36,133 nt of DNA from Candidatus Saccharimonadia bacterium (GTDB lineage Bacteria; Patescibacteriota; Saccharimonadia; UBA4664). Under the pieces are notes generated by a model. The model saw only the letters and a list, made by a program, of their open reading frames with translations. It ran no database searches and was not told where the DNA came from. The stretch's first letter is position 1. Each line of letters opens with the position of its first letter. This document shows, piece by piece, positions 3,202 through 35,030 of the stretch. Location: the NCBI GenBank assembly GCA_038244255.1, contig JBBRTP010000001.1:1-36133 (forward strand), read 5' to 3'. A program made the translations under genes and the position numbers.

Positions 3202-3226
3202 TTCGGCTGGGGTCATACAAGCTCCA

Positions 3227-3266
3227 CCAATAATAAGACCCCACCGGCGTGGGGTCTTATTATTGG
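3227..3266. terminator. bidirectional hairpin abutting the CCA end of tRNA-Val
   Basis: CCAATAATAAGACCCCA-ccggcg-TGGGGTCTTATTATTGG. Confidence 0.6.
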
Positions 3267-3340
3267 TGGACAATACAGGACTCGAACCTGTGACCTCTGC
3301 AATGTGAATGCAGCGCTCTAACCAACTGAGCTAATTGTCC
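3264..3340 (-). tRNA. tRNA-Val (anticodon CAC), CCA encoded
   Basis: Minus strand: GGACAATTAGCTCAGTTGGTTAGAGCGCTGCATTCACATTGCAGAGGTCACAGGTTCGAGTCCTGTATTGTCCACCA. Anticodon loop is TTCACAT. Confidence 0.9.
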
Positions 3341-3453
3341 CTAACCAACCCCGACGCTTCGGTCGGGGCTCCGACTGGAACGTCGGAGCTGAGCTAATTG
3401 TCCGTAACGGACAAATCTTAGCAGGAAAGTGCTGCTTCATCTAGCCTAGAGGC

Positions 3454-3681
3454 TCACTCGAACGGTGGATCTAGTTCAAGGCTGAGCATGGAGAGTAATG
3501 ACTCCGCCAGATCGGGCCCGAGGCGCACCTCACGGCTGAGGCGACGCGGCCCCGAGAGGAACTTGAGGGTAATGTTATCCTCGGCGTCGCGGTCGAGCAT
3601 TACGATATCGACCCCGCGCCGTACCGGCACTGGCCTCGCTAGCGTCTGCATGAATGTTATCTGGCGGCCACTTCTCGCCAT
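3454..3681 (-). CDS. hypothetical small protein
   Basis: Listed in the ORF track. A GGGGG SD-like motif lies upstream of the ATG. No recognisable domain. Confidence 0.35.
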   Translation of the reverse strand: MARSGRQITFMQTLARPVPVRRGVDIVMLDRDAEDNITLKFLSGPRRLSREVRLGPDLAESLLSMLSLELDPPFE

Positions 3682-3898
3682 ATCTACCCCCGAGCTTGTG
3701 CTCTTTATTGGTGGTAATCGTAACCTTTATGTACGATTCGTGTCATTTGCCATTCCTACAGGACGTTATTTTGAGGCCAAATATTTGGATGTTGTTACAA
3801 TGACAACACGGATAATGCACTCCCAGAGCCATAAACACCTTAAGCGGTATCGGGCGTCAACTAATGGTTAGGTCGCCATCCTCACACTCCCGCCCGTC

Positions 3899-3937
3899 AC
3901 AAGATAAAAACCCCACAGCGTGGGGTTTTTATCTTGG
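3899..3937. terminator. bidirectional hairpin abutting the CCA end of the second tRNA-Val
   Basis: CCAAGATAAAAACCCCA-cagcg-TGGGGTTTTTATCTTGG, the same design as 3227-3266. Confidence 0.6.
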
Positions 3938-4011
3938 TGGATCCTAGAGGATTCGAACCTCTGACCCCTTCAACGTCAATGAAGTGCTCTAGCCAGCTGA
4001 GCTAAGGATCC
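3935..4011 (-). tRNA. tRNA-Val (anticodon GAC), CCA encoded
   Basis: Minus strand: GGATCCTTAGCTCAGCTGGCTAGAGCACTTCATTGACGTTGAAGGGGTCAGAGGTTCGAATCCTCTAGGATCCACCA. Anticodon loop is TTGACGT. Confidence 0.9.
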
Positions 4012-11378: not shown

Positions 11379-12311
11379 TTATAGCCAAATCTTAGTCTTT
11401 ATGTCCTGCCTCAAACGATAACTATTAGCGTGCATGCAAAGCCCAAGGTACGACGAAATGTTAGCCTCATTTACCCGCTGTATCATCCGTAGCTTGGTCC
11501 TATTCCTGAGGCCAATGCTATGCGGTTTTACCACGTAGCCCAAGAAATCAATTCCCTGTCCCCAGCTGCGAATCGTCGTCTTACCCGGATGCAGAGTTAG
11601 CCCTAGCCGGTCATACAGAAACTCGGTCAGGACAGGGATTAGATCAAACAGGTGCTGCCGGCTAGTACTCAGGATTATAAAGTCGTCACAGTAGCGCAGA
11701 TACTGTTTCTCTCTAAGATGGTTCTTCACAAACCAATCAAACTCATGTAGGTAGACGTTAGCAAAGAGCTGGCTCGTCAGGTTACCCAGCGGGATCCCCT
11801 TGCCGGAGCTTGCGGGCAGGCTATCGATAATTGTTTGCAATAACTCTAAAGTTCTCTCGTCACCGATCCGCCGCTCAAGTAGATCCATCAGTATCGCATG
11901 ATCGACCGACGCAAAGAACTGTCTAACATCACATTTGAGGGCGTAGACCGTCTGCGTATTGTTTGTACTAGCTTGGCGCAGGAAGGTACGTAGTCGCGTC
12001 ACCGCCGCATGAGTACCTTTTTGCTTGCGACAAGAGTAACTGTCATGGATGAAACGACGATCAAACAATGGCTCGATGGCGCTGACAATCGCCTGGTGGA
12101 CGAGGCGATCCTCGACGGTGGCTTTATGAATTCGGCGCTGCTTGGGATCGCAGATCGTAAACGGACTATACCTACCATGTCGGTAGCTACCAGACTCAAG
12201 CTTTTGCTGTAATTCAAAGATGTTCACCTCGAGATGGCGTTCGTATCGCAGAACATCGGTACGTGAACGCTTACCCCGTTTAAACTTGTCCCAAGCGGCA
12301 AATAGCGCCAC
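11379..12311 (-). CDS. DGR-type reverse transcriptase
   Basis: RT motifs are present, including motif 4 IPLGNLTSQ (the DGR hallmark [ILV]GxxxSQ) and YCDD. There is no maturase/endonuclease tail. GTG start. TR, VR and Avd lie adjacent. Confidence 0.9.
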   Translation of the reverse strand: MALFAAWDKFKRGKRSRTDVLRYERHLEVNIFELQQKLESGSYRHGRYSPFTICDPKQRRIHKATVEDRLVHQAIVSAIEPLFDRRFIHDSYSCRKQKGTHAAVTRLRTFLRQASTNNTQTVYALKCDVRQFFASVDHAILMDLLERRIGDERTLELLQTIIDSLPASSGKGIPLGNLTSQLFANVYLHEFDWFVKNHLREKQYLRYCDDFIILSTSRQHLFDLIPVLTEFLYDRLGLTLHPGKTTIRSWGQGIDFLGYVVKPHSIGLRNRTKLRMIQRVNEANISSYLGLCMHANSYRLRQDIKTKIWL

Positions 12312-12312
12312 T

Positions 12313-12753
12313 ATGGAGACTGCTTCATTAAAACTTACCGAGGAATCTTTATGCCTAACAGGAACAAAATCTCGCCCCCCCCCTAAACTGAAGGGTAAGC
12401 TGTCCGGTGGGCTGTTTGATGTACCGATTATTCATACGCTCTACCAAACGTATCATTCCTGGAACGATTTATTGCTAAAGTTTCCTAAGGCTCAACGCTA
12501 CACACTAGGGCAGACTTGCCAAACGCAGCTGCTCACCCTCCTTGAAGCTACCGTGAGCGCAGCCGGGATAGCTGAAACCGAGTCTAAGGTAAAACAGCTG
12601 CGTCTTGCCTCGGCCAAGCTGGACGTATTACGTCTCCTGGTACGGCTCTGTAAGGACTGCAAATGCATCTCTAACGAAGCTTATCTGGAGACCGAATCCA
12701 AACTACACGAGATCGGACGCATGCTCGGTGGTTGGATCAAAGCTACCTCATAG
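12313..12753 (+). CDS. avd: Avd-like four-helix-bundle DGR accessory protein
   Basis: FPKAQRYTLGQTCQTQLLTLLEATVSAA...LRLASAKLDVLRLLVRLCKDCKCISNEAYLETESKLHEIGRMLGGWIK fits the family. The start is uncertain: ATG 12313, or ATG 12220 which would overlap the RT. Confidence 0.75.
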   Translation: METASLKLTEESLCLTGTKSRPPPKLKGKLSGGLFDVPIIHTLYQTYHSWNDLLLKFPKAQRYTLGQTCQTQLLTLLEATVSAAGIAETESKVKQLRLASAKLDVLRLLVRLCKDCKCISNEAYLETESKLHEIGRMLGGWIKATS

Positions 12754-12757
12754 AAAT

Positions 12758-12788
12758 AGTAAAGGAGCGCGATTAGCACTCCTTTACT
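12758..12788. other. 10-bp hairpin 11 nt from the 3' end of the TR
   Basis: AGTAAAGGAG-cgcgattagca-CTCCTTTACT. It could be the avd terminator, part of the DGR RNA spacer structure, or both. Confidence 0.5.
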
Positions 12789-12799
12789 ATATCGAGCAG

Positions 12800-12916
12800 T
12801 CCCTGAAGGCAACCATGGCAGTCTTGTGCCACCTGTTGTCATCCCAGTTGTTGTCGACATAGGCCTTGCGGCCATTGCGGTTGAAGTTCGGCAGGTTCCC
12901 GGAGTCGACGACCAAC
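12800..12916 (-). repeat. DGR template repeat (TR)
   Basis: Ungapped 117-bp match to 13287-13403. All 17 mismatches are A on the minus strand here. There are seven AAC/AAT codons when read in the VR frame. Confidence 0.9.
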
Positions 12917-13143
12917 TAGTTATGCACTCTTAGCCTTGCGTATCACTGAGCCCAGACGCATCCAGACTCTGTATTTTATGCGAGATCAACCATCTCAAGC
13001 CAAGAGCACGGAGTGCTTGATAAGCCACCTGCGCACTCTAGCAACCCGTAAGCGACTAGATCCTGGCAGTAATGTGGCAATCAAGAGATTTCGGCGACCA
13101 TAACTCCGTAAAGTCGGATTCATTAGCCTACTTTCCAGTTTTG

Positions 13144-13152
13144 ATTATACCA
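13144..13152 (-). promoter_or_regulatory. candidate extended -10 (TGgTATAAT) that could drive the TR transcript
   Basis: The minus strand reads TGGTATAAT. No clear -35 element. Confidence 0.3.
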
Positions 13153-13279
13153 AGACATGAAGAAGGGGCGCTCCTCCAACCTCTACTTTCGTAAAAATTG
13201 AATTTGCGCCCCTGCGGGGCGGAGGGCCAAGGAACAGAGTCCAAGGCCCTCCAAGCCCCAAGGGACCTAAGTCCGAGCC

Positions 13280-14080
13280 CTACAACTCCCTGAAGGCAAC
13301 CATGGCAGTCCCGTGCCACCTGCGGCCATCCCAGTAGCCGCCGACAAAGGCCTTGCGGCCATCGCGGAGGAAGCGCGGCAGGCTCCCGGAGCCGACGACC
13401 AACCCTGAGGCCAACATGAACGGGATGATAGTGCCATCCATTTTCACGTAGACCTGCGGGTTCAGCGCCAGTAGCCAAGCTACTTCGAGCCCAGGCCAGA
13501 ATCGCTGGAGCCGTCGCACCTCGGAAGGAACCACACCATCGGTGGGGTCCCAGTAGGTCTCAAGATCGAGGCCAACCGGTCCGAGACACTTCGTGTCCTC
13601 TTGCTCACTTTGCTCACTGCCGACATAGAAGCTCGTGCGACCGGGACCAGTATAGTCCTCGAAGGCAAAACCGCAAGCTTTGGCTTCATCCTCGAGCCAA
13701 GCTATGGCCTCGGCTCGGTCATGCTCCAGGCCCTTACCGAGCCGGATGGTGACACCGGTGGGCCGGAGTCTCCCAGCGTGATCCGTGAGATTAGCCGCCA
13801 AGGCAGCGGACTGCTTCTTAGTGAAGCCCCAGCCACGTAGCCTACTGCGAGCCATGATGCGCTCGACGTACTGGCTGACCGGCGTCCATGGGATGTCGGG
13901 AGCCGCTGGCGTAAGCAGTGTCGCGAAGGCACCGCGGTCGACCTGCGAGAGGTCGGCGTCGAGCATCCTCTGGATGAGATCACCGTTACCGAGCAGGTTC
14001 TGTACTTGCTCGACGGTCGGCTCGTCCCCGAAGAGGCTCAAGAGCTTCCGGGTCTGCTTCATCGTAGCGGGTGTCGGCAT
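13280..14080 (-). CDS. DGR target (variable) protein with a VR-encoded C-terminus
   Basis: ORF track lists 13280-14116 with a GTG start. The ATG at 14080 behind AGGCGG is preferred. The C-terminus is ...GGYWDGRRWHGTAMVAFREL, like the C-terminal variable regions of known DGR targets (comparison from memory). GC3-rich. Confidence 0.8.
   Translation of the reverse strand: MPTPATMKQTRKLLSLFGDEPTVEQVQNLLGNGDLIQRMLDADLSQVDRGAFATLLTPAAPDIPWTPVSQYVERIMARSRLRGWGFTKKQSAALAANLTDHAGRLRPTGVTIRLGKGLEHDRAEAIAWLEDEAKACGFAFEDYTGPGRTSFYVGSEQSEQEDTKCLGPVGLDLETYWDPTDGVVPSEVRRLQRFWPGLEVAWLLALNPQVYVKMDGTIIPFMLASGLVVGSGSLPRFLRDGRKAFVGGYWDGRRWHGTAMVAFREL
13287..13403 (-). repeat. DGR variable repeat (VR)
   Basis: It forms the last 39 codons of the target ORF and differs from the TR only at TR adenines. 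Confidence 0.9.
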
Positions 14081-14265
14081 GACAGTCCGCCTATTCTGCC
14101 GTCTAATTCTAGTCACGCACGGTGCGCGGTAGACTCAGACCAAGGTGTGAGAACGGCATACTGAGACCAAAAAGGAATTGGTCACAAAATACCGCTCTCA
14201 ACTGAAATGTAACGGATTGTCAAAATACAAATGTATTATACTACTAAACACTTATTCTGTCAATA

Positions 14266-28273: not shown

Positions 28274-28349
28274 GGGCTCGTAGTGAAGTGGTTATCACGC
28301 CTCCCTGTCACGGAGGAGATCGCCGGTTCGAAACCGGTCGAGCCCGCCA
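28274..28349 (+). tRNA. tRNA-Asp (anticodon GTC), CCA encoded
   Basis: GGGCTCGTAGTGAAGTGGTTATCACGCCTCCCTGTCACGGAGGAGATCGCCGGTTCGAAACCGGTCGAGCCCGCCA. Confidence 0.92.
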
Positions 28350-28356
28350 TTGAAAG

Positions 28357-28380
28357 ACCGTCACGCAAGTGGCGGTTTTT
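28357..28380 (+). terminator. tRNA-Asp terminator
   Basis: ACCGTCAC-gcaa-GTGGCGGT followed by TTTTT. Confidence 0.7.
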
Positions 28381-28404
28381 CATGTTGTGAATCAGTAGGC
28401 TCAT

Positions 28405-28480
28405 TTGTATTTATACCATTTTTGTGTTATAGTAAATTATCGCTCACCGAGCGTTCGACCTGCGTCACGCACGACGTCGC
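28405..28480 (+). promoter_or_regulatory. promoter (TTGTAT-17-TGtTATAGT) plus conserved structured leader, copy 1
   Basis: The 61-nt block 28420-28480 matches 34546-34606 at 54/61 positions. It contains hairpin CGCTC-acc-GAGCG, palindromes TGCGTCACGCA and CGACGTCG. Confidence 0.6.
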
Positions 28481-28505
28481 ACTACTCCATCGAGAGGAGC
28501 CCAAC

Positions 28506-28958
28506 ATGGGTTCGAGTCGCACCAACATGCCAACGGTGGCTGGCGGCGCCACAAGCGGCGAGGCCAGTAACACCGAGATCGCGCCCAACCGACGCAGTCT
28601 CCATCTCGTCTCCGAGGGCTGGGAGAACTTCTCGGCAGCTCTGATGTACTACTTCAGGGACGATGCCACTCCTGTGCACTGGATCATCGAACCAGAGCTT
28701 GGCTTCTGCCTCAGCCACGACACGATCCTCGATCCCACGTATAGTGAGGGTGGCGTTGCCGGCTCGCTTCACGATGCGACCGATTGTGCCTACGACTGGC
28801 TGGTCAGCCTCAATCACGCCGAGAGGTACCGCCTCGTGAAATGCTGGCCGAACGATGGGTCCAACCTCACCGAGCTCACCGGCTTCCAGATGAACACGCG
28901 CTACCAGCGCCTCCGGACCGATCAGGACATCCTCGAGATCAAGCCCGCCTGGGTCTGA
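28506..28958 (+). CDS. hypothetical protein, paralog of 34644-35030
   Basis: GAGAGGAG SD. Shared motifs are SAAL..YFRD, ERYRL/ARYQL, PND.S..T.L.GF and a terminal PAWV. GC3-rich. Confidence 0.65.
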   Translation: MGSSRTNMPTVAGGATSGEASNTEIAPNRRSLHLVSEGWENFSAALMYYFRDDATPVHWIIEPELGFCLSHDTILDPTYSEGGVAGSLHDATDCAYDWLVSLNHAERYRLVKCWPNDGSNLTELTGFQMNTRYQRLRTDQDILEIKPAWV

Positions 28959-29212
28959 CCCCGCCCCCTCGGGGCATCCACCCGTCACTCCGACGAAGAT
29001 GCCCAGGAGGGGGCATTTTCTTGTCTTTGGAGCTGGAAATAAGTCCGAACATCATCCGATACGGCCCGCCATAAAAGACGTCTTGCCTTGCGCAGGGCGT
29101 CTTTTATGATGATTTGTCGGCCGGTTGAGAACGTCGCTGGTTCGGCGAAGCCAAGACGCCGCAGGCGGACCTTGGCGGAGAAGGCGCAGCCGCTAACCGG
29201 TCGAGCCCGCCA
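28959..29212 (+). repeat. cassette boundary module, copy A (about 254 bp)
   Basis: It starts immediately after the stop codon. It is homologous to 29785-30037 and ends with an 18-nt copy of the tRNA-Asp 3' end. Confidence 0.85.
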
Positions 29213-29269
29213 GCAATCGTTTAGAGGCTTTATTTAGTTTCTTTTTGTTAGCAAACACACAATCGTCGA

Positions 29270-29298
29270 TGTCGAATTATTGACCAATCTATCATTTT
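29270..29298 (+). promoter_or_regulatory. promoter TTGACC-17-TATTAT
   Basis: Read directly from the sequence, upstream of the 29401 gene. Confidence 0.5.
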
Positions 29299-29400
29299 AT
29301 GGTATTATTTACCAAATCCCTCCCCGTTATGGGTAGGTCCGCCATCTGGCGTAGGAGGTTTCAGCAGCTCCTCTGCTGACGCACCGAGAGGTAGGTCGTT

Positions 29401-29775
29401 ATGACCGCCAAGATCATCGTGGCTGGTCCCTCTAAGTGGGACATCATGATTTCCATCTTTGAGGGTACAAAGGTCAGATTCACTGCCGATGACGGCTCCG
29501 TGGTCAGATCTCGCATCCAAGCAATCTTCGACAACATGGGCTGGTATCTCGGCGACAAGCCAATCCTCAAGAGTCAGGCCTATCTCTTTGCAGGTGAGTT
29601 CGAAGAGGATGAGAAGTCGATAAAATTCTTCGCCTACTACTCGCCTAGTGAGCGAAGCGGCTTCATCAGCACCAACGTCCTTGATGATGGCAGCTTCTTC
29701 GACGCCGGCCGTGACGGTTACACAGAACTCCACGAGGTCTGGGTCAAGCACATCCTTGGCTCAACCACCACCTAG
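29401..29775 (+). CDS. hypothetical protein (cassette 2)
   Basis: Listed in the ORF track. GAGAGG SD. No recognisable domain. Confidence 0.6.
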   Translation: MTAKIIVAGPSKWDIMISIFEGTKVRFTADDGSVVRSRIQAIFDNMGWYLGDKPILKSQAYLFAGEFEEDEKSIKFFAYYSPSERSGFISTNVLDDGSFFDAGRDGYTELHEVWVKHILGSTTT

Positions 29776-29784
29776 ACCAGACTA

Positions 29785-30037
29785 CCCCGCCCCCTCGGGG
29801 CATCCAACCGTCACTACGACGAAGATGCCCAGGAGGGGGCATTTTCGTGCCCGGTTGTACTGAAATAAGTCCGAACATCCTCCGCTACGGCCCGCCATAA
29901 CAAAAGACTCACCCCGAGTGGGTCTTTTATTATGTAGACTTAGCTCCGGTTTCGAACGTCGCAGGTTCGGCGAAGCCAAGACGCCGGAGGCGGACCTTGG
30001 CGAAGAAGGCGGAGCCGCTAACCGGTCGAGCCCGCCA
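29785..30037 (+). repeat. cassette boundary module, copy B (about 253 bp)
   Basis: Homologous to 28959-29212. Confidence 0.85.
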
Positions 30038-30068
30038 TTGAAAGACCGTCACGCATGTGGCGGTTTTT
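30020..30068 (+). repeat. direct repeat of the tRNA-Asp 3' end plus its terminator
   Basis: 49 nt identical to 28332-28380 except one loop base. Weaker similarity continues to about 30095 versus about 28405. Confidence 0.85.
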
Positions 30069-30144
30069 CTTATGCTTTGAAATAATCAGTAGCTGACAGA
30101 TAATAATGCTTCGTAACTTCACATTCTGGACCAAGGAGCGAATC

Positions 30145-31257
30145 ATGGTTGACCAGCCTATGACGTACTCAGGCAGCGGCGTCAGCTATGACGCCATGGA
30201 CCCATTCAAGCGTGCTTGCCAGCTCGTTGGCCTTGAGACAGCCGAGAACATCCGGCGGCTCGCCGGTGGTGAGCTCAGGGAGCTGGAGGCAAGTCGAGGT
30301 GAAAGTGTCTACCTCATCGAAACGCCTGATAGCTACCTTGCCCACGTCGAAGAGGGACTAGGCACCAAGAACCTCGTCGCCGACGCCATGTACGCTCTTA
30401 CCGGCAAGTCCTACTACGACCAAGTCGCCCAGGACGCGGTGGCCATGATCGTCAACGACATGATCACGCTAGGCGCCCTACCGCTCTCGGTTGCCATGCA
30501 CCTAGCAGCCGGCTCATCTGACTGGTTCAACGACGAGACCCGCTGGACAGACCTCATCGAGGGCTGGAAGGCTGCCTGCAACCAGGCAGGGTGTATCTAC
30601 AGCGCCGGCGAGTCGCCCACACTCAGGGACCTTGTCATGCCGGGCACGGTTGTCATATCGGGCTCGGCTATGGGCATCATCAAGCCCAAGGCACGGCTGA
30701 TTAAGAGCAATATCCAGAATGGCGACGCCATCGTCATTTTGGCTAGCTCCGGCTCTCACGCCAATGGCCTGACCCTAGCGCGAGACATCGCTGAGCGCAC
30801 GGGTTACGATGCCAAGCTAAGCGACGGCCGGATGTTCGGCGAAGCCCTGCTCGACCCGACGACCATCTATGTCCCCGTCGTGGAGGGTTGCCTGGACGCC
30901 GGGATCGACATCCACTACACGGTTAACATCACGGGCCACGGTTGGCGCAAGCTGATGCGGGCGGTGGAGCCGTTCGTTTACTGGATCCAGTACGTCCCCG
31001 AACCCCAGCCAGTCTTCAAATTCATCATGGAGCACGGACCGGTGGACGAAGAGGAGATGTATGGCAACTACAACATGGGTGCCGGCTTCGCTCTCTATGT
31101 CGACAACTCTGATGTCGATCGAGTTATCCAGATAGCTGCCCAAAGCGGCATCGAAGCCTGGTACGCGGGGTACATCGGGAAGGTCGGTAACAAGAAACGA
31201 GTGATGATCCTGCCAAAGCATCTGGTTTACGAAAGCGAAACGCTTGCCGTTCGCTGA
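30145..31257 (+). CDS. PurM-family (AIR synthase-related) protein
   Basis: EGLGTK, MIVNDMITLGALPL, SAGESPT..MPG and SSGSHANGLTL motifs parallel PurM. AAGGAG SD precedes the ATG at 30145. Confidence 0.75.
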   Translation: MVDQPMTYSGSGVSYDAMDPFKRACQLVGLETAENIRRLAGGELRELEASRGESVYLIETPDSYLAHVEEGLGTKNLVADAMYALTGKSYYDQVAQDAVAMIVNDMITLGALPLSVAMHLAAGSSDWFNDETRWTDLIEGWKAACNQAGCIYSAGESPTLRDLVMPGTVVISGSAMGIIKPKARLIKSNIQNGDAIVILASSGSHANGLTLARDIAERTGYDAKLSDGRMFGEALLDPTTIYVPVVEGCLDAGIDIHYTVNITGHGWRKLMRAVEPFVYWIQYVPEPQPVFKFIMEHGPVDEEEMYGNYNMGAGFALYVDNSDVDRVIQIAAQSGIEAWYAGYIGKVGNKKRVMILPKHLVYESETLAVR

Positions 31258-31356
31258 TTCACCTAGCAGTAGGTGGGTGCTCAGCTCCGGAGGTAACTCT
31301 GGAGCTGAGACTCAACCCAAGCTTTTAACAATTGTTGAAGGCTTAGGCTGAAATAT

Positions 31357-31392
31357 GAAATAAGTCCGAACGTCCTCCGCTACGGCCCGCCA
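31357..31392 (+). repeat. third copy of the GAAATAAGTCCGAAC...TACGGCCCGCCA motif
   Basis: It matches 29036-29071 and 29862-29897. The following about 40 nt resemble 29213-29250. Confidence 0.75.
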
Positions 31393-31502
31393 GTAATCAT
31401 TTGGAGTCTTTCTTAAGCCTCTTTTTGTATTCCAAGATTGACTTCTGACCGAGTTTATCATATCGTGCTCCTGTTCGCTCCCGAGACCGAAATGAGGCCA
31501 CC

Positions 31503-33882: not shown

Positions 33883-34251
33883 TTACTTTCGGTTAACCCA
33901 TGTCCCTAGAATTAACTTCATAAGTACCATAGTGCCGAGAGCACCAACGAGCCATGGATCTAGCTGATGAGTTATCGACTGAAAAGAAATACCCATAATT
34001 AACACCAATCCCCCAGCCAGATAAGAAGCTCTTCCGACCTGAAAACTTAGCTGCGCTTCCCTCTCGTCTCGTGGTCGTTCACGCCACAATAATGCCGTAA
34101 AGCCGATTGTGAGTATCGCCACTACCATCACCAAAGTTAGTTCTATGGCACCGGGCATCCAGATATGGAATGGGTTAACCAAGAATGTTAAAGCTAGTCC
34201 AATACCAATGACGAGTAGCCACTCATACATGGTCGTTTTATACATCTTCAT
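33883..34251 (-). CDS. hypothetical membrane protein
   Basis: Three to four TM helices. Overlaps the end of the XRE gene by 14 nt. Confidence 0.6.
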   Translation of the reverse strand: MKMYKTTMYEWLLVIGIGLALTFLVNPFHIWMPGAIELTLVMVVAILTIGFTALLWRERPRDEREAQLSFQVGRASYLAGGLVLIMGISFQSITHQLDPWLVGALGTMVLMKLILGTWVNRK

Positions 34252-34450
34252 AGTGAAATACTTCCTCTACCTGTTTCTTGAATACCCTAGCTAGCTGCAA
34301 CGCTAATAATACCGACGGTACGTAATTACCTTTCTCGATAGAGATGATTGTTTGGCGGGTCACATTCACGAGGGCAGCTAGGGCTTCTTGCGTAAGCTTT
34401 AACTCTTTTCGATACCGCTCAACTTCGTTTTTAATTATGTGGCGTTGCAT
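34238..34450 (-). CDS. XRE-family helix-turn-helix regulator
   Basis: LKLTQEALAALVNVTRQTIISIEKGNYVPSVLLALQLARVF. Confidence 0.85.
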   Translation of the reverse strand: MQRHIIKNEVERYRKELKLTQEALAALVNVTRQTIISIEKGNYVPSVLLALQLARVFKKQVEEVFHYEDV

Positions 34451-34530
34451 GTTCGCATTGTAGCCTCGTCCGTCAGAAGAGTCACATTATTTAGCTGAGG
34501 TACCAGCCAATTCGAATATCTCGATTATCA

Positions 34531-34606
34531 TTGCTTTTATGCTCATTTTGTGTTATAGTGAATCATCGCTCAATGAGCGCTCGACCTACGTCACGTACGA
34601 CGTCGC
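34531..34606 (+). promoter_or_regulatory. promoter (TTGCTT-17-TGtTATAGT) plus conserved structured leader, copy 2
   Basis: See 28405-28480. Here the hairpin is CGCTC-aat-GAGCG and the palindrome is TACGTCACGTA. Confidence 0.6.
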
Positions 34607-34643
34607 TCACCACATCCCGTTCCCGCCGACGAGAGGCATCGAA

Positions 34644-35030
34644 ATGACTGCTGCAACAGCACCTTCGCTGGTCCGCTATCGCTCATTCCATTTCACCGGC
34701 GAGTCTCTGGAGGAGATGTCGGCTGCCTTGTCCTTCTACTTCCGTGACGCCGAAGTGGTGTACTGGTGGATCGACAGCGCGGGCTACCTGCAACTCTCCG
34801 CCACCGCTCCCTGGCTGCTTGCCAGCGGCCAGGGTACGCCACAAGTTGCCGCAACGGCAGCAATGGCCTGGATCGATGCCCTTGACCGGCTCGCCCGATA
34901 TCAGCTCAACCAGAGCATTCCCAACGACTCGTCAACCTTCACATCGCTCGAAGGCTTCAGCCTGCAATCCAGCTTCCGTAGGTGGACGCATGACCCTGAT
35001 AGCATCAAGGTTTGCCCCGCTTGGGTATAG
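34644..35030 (+). CDS. hypothetical protein, paralog of 28506-28958
   Basis: GAGAGG SD. Shares motifs with its paralog and also ends in PAWV. Confidence 0.65.
   Translation: MTAATAPSLVRYRSFHFTGESLEEMSAALSFYFRDAEVVYWWIDSAGYLQLSATAPWLLASGQGTPQVAATAAMAWIDALDRLARYQLNQSIPNDSSTFTSLEGFSLQSSFRRWTHDPDSIKVCPAWV

Follow-up and report, generated by a model that had tools for sequence, protein, structure and literature searches.

Comparing the regions in front of two paralogous genes, A and B, in a 36,133-nt stretch of DNA from an uncultivated Saccharimonadia bacterium (the window), we found that a promoter and the start of the leader behind it have been kept far better than the genes themselves. Read directly from an alignment of both blocks, block 28405-28480 agrees with 34531-34606 at 63 of 76 nt, and the sub-block 28420-28480 matches 34546-34606 at 54 of 61, exactly the count given in a preliminary description of this DNA. 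That description had also held the block to be conserved far better than the genes it precedes, which is borne out by the coding sequences (49% nucleotide identity) and by the proteins (36% identical by BLASTP, 38% by global alignment); third codon positions, 45% identical, are saturated. The 120 nt on the 5' side of the block are 15-40% identical between A and B, i.e., random. Because the coding sequences are saturated and the 5' flank is random, the block is a sharply bounded island of identity, and its conservation lies far above the neutral level. It is probably a small regulatory module. The reading we prefer, tentatively and with a little under even confidence, is that of a lineage-specific cis-regulatory promoter/leader module of two old paralogues, acting mainly as RNA, which purifying selection would have kept even as the genes behind it became saturated with changes. 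The genes and promoters concerned are these:

tRNA-Asp(GTC): positions 28274 to 28349, forward strand, found by ARAGORN and Rfam.
Terminator-like hairpin and T-run after tRNA-Asp: 28353 to 28381, forward strand, parting the tRNA transcript from promoter A.
Promoter A: 28405 to 28433, forward strand, with -35 TTGTAT at 28405-28410, a 17-nt spacer and the extended -10 TGTTATAGT at 28425-28433.
Gene A: 28506 to 28958, forward strand, 150 aa, of a rare protein family ending in PAWV.
XRE-type HTH regulator: 34238 to 34450, reverse strand, 69-70 aa, divergent from gene B (Pfam HTH_3, 2.2e-13).
Promoter B: 34531 to 34559, forward strand, with -35 TTGCTT at 34531-34536, a 17-nt spacer and the extended -10 TGTTATAGT at 34551-34559.
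Gene B: 34644 to 35030, forward strand, 128 aa, paralogue of A.

The promoter proposed earlier, TTG followed after 17 nt by an extended -10, is present in both copies, and each has the full sigma-70 extended -10 layout of TTGnnn, a spacer of 16-18 nt, and TGn with a TATAAT-like hexamer, here TG-T-TATAGT. Around the extended -10, the 14 nt TTTTGTGTTATAGT are identical at 14 of 14 positions between A and B, and TGTGTTATAGT occurs within the window only at these two promoters, with 0.19 occurrences expected by chance. A generic promoter scan omitted both of them, as their -35 elements match the consensus at only 3 of 6 positions. Promoter A begins 55 nt past tRNA-Asp(GTC). Transcription is predicted to start about 7 nt past TATAGT, at the foot of the first hairpin of the leader, and a strong sigma-70-type extended -10 promoter would drive the transcript of each paralogue.

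Differences between the two copies are unevenly spread, with 6 in the 15 nt of the -35 and spacer and 7 in the 61 nt elsewhere (Fisher p=0.017), which points to constraint on the -10 and leader rather than to uniform recent copying. The seven differences of the sub-block lie at 28434, 28438, 28447, 28448, 28454, 28462, and 28470 (coordinates of copy A); 28447 and 28448 fall in the loop of hairpin 1, and 28462 and 28470 take up symmetric positions of TGCGTCACGCA / TACGTCACGTA. A palindrome described earlier as following this last pair, CGACGTCG at 28472-28479, is indeed unchanged between the copies. No further copy of the block, even partial, was found within the window, and a degenerate pattern of its 41-nt core had 0 chance matches in 100 shuffles.

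The block is non-coding, as had been argued before. In A as in B its frame runs open into the gene, and a public call for gene B (P0002, 163 aa) takes ATG 34539, within the promoter spacer, as its start. An N-terminal extension encoded by the block, as this call has it, would agree with the open frame and with the indel between block and ATG, whose length of 12 nt is divisible by three; we nevertheless find it scarcely credible. The only in-frame starts upstream of the ATGs of the two genes are ATG 34539 in B and TTG 28422 or TTG 28350 in A, so that translation would begin inside the gene's own promoter or, from TTG 28350, run from the end of the tRNA across the terminator. Five of the seven differences fall at codon positions 1 or 2, the argument against coding made in the preliminary description, and if translated they would bring six amino-acid changes. 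Moreover, a CGAGAGG Shine-Dalgarno sequence is conserved ahead of both ATG 28506 and ATG 34644, the call for gene A has 150 aa, and the homologues align from near these downstream ATGs. The 163-aa call is thus probably over-extended, the Shine-Dalgarno sequence and the homologues both backing the 128-aa product from ATG 34644. Three smaller candidates were also set aside: a uORF or leader peptide, whose ATG is found only in copy B, in a hairpin loop, and is not conserved; a LexA-type box, with a GTTCGA half-site in A only; and a minus-strand promoter, which is not conserved in B.

The leader downstream of the promoter can be divided as follows:

Conserved 5' part of leader A: 28440 to 28480, forward strand, 36 of 41 positions identical to leader B.
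Conserved 5' part of leader B: 34566 to 34606, forward strand, counterpart of 28440-28480.
Predicted hairpin 1 of leader A: 28441 to 28453, forward strand, CGCUC-ACC-GAGCG, at the predicted 5' end.
Predicted hairpin 1 of leader B: 34567 to 34579, forward strand, CGCUC-AAU-GAGCG.
Second element of leader A, model 1: 28461 to 28471, forward strand, UGCG-UCA-CGCA within CGAC (28456-59) and GUCG (28476-79).
Second element of leader A, model 2: 28462 to 28466 with 28473 to 28477, forward strand, the RNAalifold alternative.
Second element of leader B: 34587 to 34597, or 34588 to 34592 with 34599 to 34603, forward strand, two alternative predicted models.
Palindrome CGACGTCG: 28472 to 28479 in A and 34598 to 34605 in B, forward strand, invariant.
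Predicted hairpin over the Shine-Dalgarno sequence of gene A: 28485 to 28499, forward strand, CUCC-AUCGAGA-GGAG, with CGAGAGG at 28491-28497 (RNAfold and RNAalifold).
Predicted hairpin over the Shine-Dalgarno sequence of gene B: 34625 to 34637, forward strand, GCC-GACGAGA-GGC, with CGAGAGG at 34630-34636.

A module acting as RNA would comprise the extended -10 promoter and the opening ~41 nt of the transcript, common to both paralogues. Hairpin 1, with a stem of 5 bp and a loop of 3 nt, starts 8 nt past TATAGT in both copies, and its differences between A and B are confined to the loop; the mRNA would therefore begin with a 5'-terminal stem-loop, an arrangement protecting against 5'-end-dependent decay. 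Past it, a GC-rich segment of 27 nt is identical at 25 of 27 positions, holds TGCGTCACGCA / TACGTCACGTA and CGACGTCG, and is predicted to be able to fold into another small hairpin. After a variable linker, 9 nt in A and 21 nt in B, follows the weak predicted hairpin over the Shine-Dalgarno sequence, in which A and B differ by one U-A to G-C double change. Such a module would set stability and/or translation alike for both paralogues, and its invariant unpaired bases probably contact a trans-acting factor.

Run on both leaders, RNAalifold predicts three hairpins, of which the second is (G/A)CGUC-6 nt-GACGU and the third, over the Shine-Dalgarno sequence, has 3-4 bp. The fold proposed in the preliminary description, UGCG-UCA-CGCA enclosed by CGAC/GUCG, forms all its pairs in A and in B, with one double change between them, and the two second-hairpin models fit the two leaders equally well. 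The earlier layout of the seven differences holds for their positions, but its compensatory pair has a second, non-compensatory reading, which under RNAalifold's second hairpin is a G.U to A-U switch plus a loop change. Nor is that pair significant: the observed covariation was reached by 258 of 500 shuffles, a test that has no power with n=2 sequences. Under both models of hairpin 2, all substitutions in the transcribed part are structure-neutral, falling in a loop or linker, changing G.U to A-U, or forming a double change. In a simulation, five random substitutions spared all nine pairs of the earlier fold at a frequency of 0.10, and did so with a double change at 0.014, figures to be read with the structure having been picked after the data were seen. 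The folding of the leaders was no more stable than that of shuffled sequences (whole leaders, z = -0.15 and +0.58; 45-nt cores, z = 0.01 and -0.60). The structured 5' UTR suggested before is upheld as a promoter with a 5' leader and finds no support in folding stability or covariation, and both of these results count against an RNA module.

Scanning the window with Rfam 15, we saw only tRNAs pass and nothing on the block; the best sub-threshold scores over both leaders were 12-15 bits against thresholds of 47-50 and were located off the block. The element had been put forward as a novel candidate, and indeed no described RNA family in Rfam matches it. A T-box or a mimic of the tRNA-Asp anticodon was considered as well, and nothing was found beyond a common GUCAC pentamer. 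Pattern searches with exact or degenerate core patterns returned no third copy of the leader from GTDB representative genomes or JGI metagenomes (pattern from the 3' half of the leader) or from IMG/VR (patterns from both halves), and BLAST found none in phage or plasmid records. With filters off, a covariance model built from A and B and run over the window and all fetched loci scored only the two known copies.

The proteins A and B have no match in Pfam, PHROG, or PADLOC; an AlphaFold model of a family protein (pLDDT 82) found no match in the PDB and only two unnamed viral proteins (TM 0.54-0.63) in a structure search. A word-index protein search returned only A and B themselves, an exhaustive HMMER search returned seven clusters of weak relatives of ~120-140 aa (E-values 2.8e-30 to 1.4e-4), six of which were examined further, most of them ending in PAWV, and a second profile search added two more members. 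No family member was found in protein-pattern scans of genomes and viral contigs. The family of proteins ending in PAWV is thus very rare. As to the host, the window is a contig of soil Saccharimonadia, of the candidate phyla radiation, because the best named matches of its DinB gene are in Candidatus Saccharimonadia / Saccharibacteria. Locus L019 is syntenic with the window around DinB, and its contig ends ~3 kb short of the tRNA-Asp region; that of L017 stops earlier still. Apart from the window, the only family-member locus with an assigned taxon is L003 (NCBI GCA_035542755.1, contig DATKKU010000010.1), which holds P0004 and is labelled Candidatus Binatia; mis-binning of this contig, 6.3 kb long, is possible.

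The closest homologue of gene B is P0003, at 51% identity, encoded at L001 and L002 in soil metagenomes, and in the protein tree it groups with B, leaving A outside, with a bootstrap of 100%. Like gene A, P0003 lies directly after tRNA-Asp(GTC) (L001 193-400, L002 175-380). Its promoter, with a -35 beginning right at the CCA end of the tRNA, is identical in L001 to promoter A at 21 of 29 positions and to promoter B at 23 of 29. Past the -10, however, its leader is unrelated to those of A and B, local alignment being no better than with shuffles, and consists of a 10-bp hairpin stem and two direct repeats of CGTCCAGATGG ~65 nt apart. Since P0003 keeps a B-like promoter but has an unrelated leader, the history of the leader is decoupled from that of the gene: either the lineage of L001 replaced its leader, or exchange or a common trans factor kept A and B alike within one genome. 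An ancient riboregulator passed on by simple vertical conservation does not fit these data, and P0003 would be expected to retain an ancestral RNA under strong constraint, which is a second point against an RNA module.

Leaders of more distant relatives bear on the same question. The sister group is made up of P0004 (L003 / L014), P0005 (L005-L009), and P0007 (L010), whose proteins are 30-44% identical, the adjacent NUDIX genes being 23% identical. A leader of the form TGGTATAAT..ACTCA-nnn-TGAGTCCTYGGCCGNGRAGGTTYC(N)GCGGTAGYTCTCC is ~85% conserved across these organisms and was located as follows:

Sister leader: L003 620 to 712, L005 5912 to 6003, L010 815 to 900.

Its 5' hairpin, ACUCA-nnn-UGAGU, is present in L003, L005, and L010, with a loop of different length in L010, and in L005 a double change has turned CCUU/AAGG into CCUC/GAGG. 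Covariation in this leader amounts to that one double change among n=3 sequences and was reached by 150 of 500 shuffles. A possible fold draws it as a 5' hairpin, an H-type pseudoknot, and an anti-SD CUCC. A third leader type (L011, L015) consists of TATTATAGT followed by AG(C/U)CGG-5 nt-CCGGCU; between L011 and L015, a C-G pair changes to U.G. Leaders of homologous loci gave no match in Rfam, and none of the relatives' leaders resembled the window type when compared with its covariance model. Since the sister leader is ~85% kept across organisms whose proteins are 30-44% identical, the leaders of the PAWV family are under selection between genomes, not merely homogenised within one. In L001, L003, L005, L010, L011, and L015, too, a hairpin lies within a few nucleotides of the expected start behind a strong extended -10, so that conserved 5'-hairpin leaders are a recurring trait of the family. 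A pattern scan for the sister leader in metagenomes and viral contigs returned the known loci plus L012 (2424-2446) and L016 (2303-2325); these two matches lie on the strand opposite recombinase-like genes, where the reverse complement encodes NLRGQGLT, and were treated as coincidence. L012 has 25 nt exactly in common with L003.

Whether the conserved segment acts as RNA or as DNA has to be weighed from these comparisons, as all stems of the earlier fold are perfect DNA palindromes too, a third point against an RNA module. The dyads at about +2 to +40 could instead be operators, bound by a dimeric repressor that blocks both paralogues as a two-promoter regulon; the repressor could be the XRE protein divergent from B or another genome-specific factor. 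This alternative, which we rate as somewhat unlikely, draws on three perfect dyads, CGCTC-N3-GAGCG, T(G/A)CGT-C-ACG(C/T)A, and CGACGTCG, whose differences between A and B are central or symmetric, and on invariant unpaired bases that suggest sequence-specific recognition. On the opposite strand, 81 nt separate the HTH_3 gene from promoter B downstream of it, and, as in small XRE or C-protein-type repressor systems, this 69-aa HTH_3 protein is encoded divergently from gene B, with the dyads close to the promoter. Furthermore, the leaders of A and B are alike within this genome and unlike that of B's closest orthologue elsewhere, which fits a genome-specific trans factor.

Nevertheless, the RNA level is weakly favoured over the DNA level, because the conserved segment, and with it every putative site, lies wholly downstream of the predicted start, because the hairpins of the sister and third leaders tolerate loop-length changes and G.U pairs, which operators do not, and because no operator copy is found at the XRE gene's own promoter. 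That promoter-like site, GTGACT-17-TACAAT at 34485-34457, stands ~46 nt further upstream of promoter B, and neither its surroundings (34451-34530) nor the rest of the window has a copy of the dyads beyond chance. XRE operators are of one half-site type, usually repeated and overlapping promoters, including the regulator's own; here the three palindromes differ from one another, measure 13, 11, and 8 bp, and lie inside the target's predicted transcribed region instead of over the regulator's promoter. In addition, gene A carries the block with no adjoining regulator, and no XRE neighbour accompanies the family at its other loci. Variation among the relatives' leaders, namely in loop length, from C-G to U.G, and from CCUU/AAGG to CCUC/GAGG, is likewise of the RNA kind.

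A further point against an RNA module is that non-coding modules are repeated in a recombination-active array around gene A. Only the promoter might then be functional, the identity of the leaders being an unselected by-product of recent gene conversion or module transfer within the genome, a view we hold to be unlikely. From 28350 to 31440, the window is a mosaic of non-coding modules, 93-98% identical, between unrelated genes, including three copies of the tRNA-Asp 3' end; the leader tree, in which A equals B, disagrees with the protein tree, in which B joins P0003; and the leaders carry no thermodynamic signal. Against such a transfer, the differences spare the -10 and the stems (the Fisher test and the two simulated frequencies given above), and a block divergence of 17% is not recent beside neighbouring repeats at 93-98% identity. 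Gene conversion also needs prior similarity, of which the flanks have none (49% on one side, random on the other), and the sister leader has been kept between organisms, beyond the reach of conversion.

The array itself is cassette-like, extends over 28332-31436 downstream of tRNA-Asp, and looks like tandem site-specific insertions at this tRNA; no integrase was found within the window. The 3' end of the tRNA, AACCGGTCGAGCCCGCCA, occurs three times (28332, 29195, and 30020), twice together with the terminator (50 nt, 98% identical). The second of these terminator copies, at 30020-30069, duplicates the terminator-like hairpin and tRNA end ahead of promoter A, and its portion 30040-30069 was reported by the terminator scan. 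Two sets of ~250-nt modules in the order D5-D1-D3 (28958-29212 and 29784-30037) are 93-95% identical, and D1 is found a third time at 31357-31436. Between the modules stand genes with no relation to one another, namely gene A, an ORF of 124 aa (29401-29775), and a gene resembling AIR synthase (30106-31257).

Other mobile or repeated features are found elsewhere in the window. A diversity-generating retroelement occupies 11379-14116, with a reverse transcriptase ORF (11379-12311, reverse strand; Pfam RVT_1, 2.2e-22), a template repeat at 12800-12916, and a variable repeat at 13287-13403, at the 3' end of an ORF on the reverse strand (13280-14116). All 17 of the 17 mismatches between the repeats are T on the forward strand (A on the coding strand) in 12800-12916, the adenine-specific signature of such elements. 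A perfect 22-nt inverted repeat (3223-3270) adjoins tRNA-Val(CAC), and a tRNA-Val-like fragment (3387-3404) lies between two tRNA-Val genes (3264-4011).

Should the module act as RNA, its mode of action could take several forms. A ligand-sensing riboswitch, with the 41 nt as a small aptamer and the linker and Shine-Dalgarno hairpin as the expression platform, would match the layout of a conserved 5' part, a variable middle (9 versus 21 nt), and a Shine-Dalgarno hairpin in both copies. It would resemble the preQ1-I and guanidine-III types in size (~40-50 nt), in layout, in the helix over the Shine-Dalgarno sequence, and in the pseudoknot that can be drawn for the sister leader. We consider it very unlikely, however, as the leaders differ from those types in having no Rfam match, no statistical support for a stable fold, and two or three examples per leader type; moreover, annotation searches of the regulated protein (Pfam, PHROG, PADLOC, PDB) suggest no ligand, and the nearest orthologue does not carry the leader. 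On a broader view, the PAWV-family leaders, i.e., the window type, the GUGAGUCCUYGGCCG..GCGGUAGYUCUCC sister type, and the third, AGYCGG hairpin type, might form a new class of structured cis-regulatory RNA, the first lineage-specific one in the candidate phyla radiation, sensing a common signal or binding a dedicated factor, a proposal that we regard as doubtful.

Stem-loops at the 5' terminus stabilise bacterial mRNAs. Emory, Bouvet and Belasco (in 1992) and Bricker and Belasco (in 1999) reportedly described such stem-loops as mRNA stabilisers. A review (PMC3997798) lists both of these papers. The preferred promoter/leader module resembles the stabilisers of Escherichia coli ompA and papA and of Bacillus subtilis in having a short hairpin near the predicted 5' end after a strong promoter, with a loop free to vary and a stem that is kept, an arrangement seen in four leader types of the family. 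In contrast to them, the block keeps 27 nt more past the hairpin, of which a mere stabiliser has no need, and its 5' end is a predicted one, in an uncultivated Saccharimonadia host. No described family fits the block, and yet short structured leaders behind conserved promoters are of a familiar kind.

To our knowledge, almost nothing is known of gene regulation in Saccharibacteria and other bacteria of the candidate phyla radiation. The block would offer a compact handle, ~75 nt in length, on how such reduced genomes control a lineage-specific gene. If it proves to be no more than a promoter whose transcript is stabilised by a 5' hairpin, the biology would be ordinary, and the block would still be a clean native strong promoter for these organisms.
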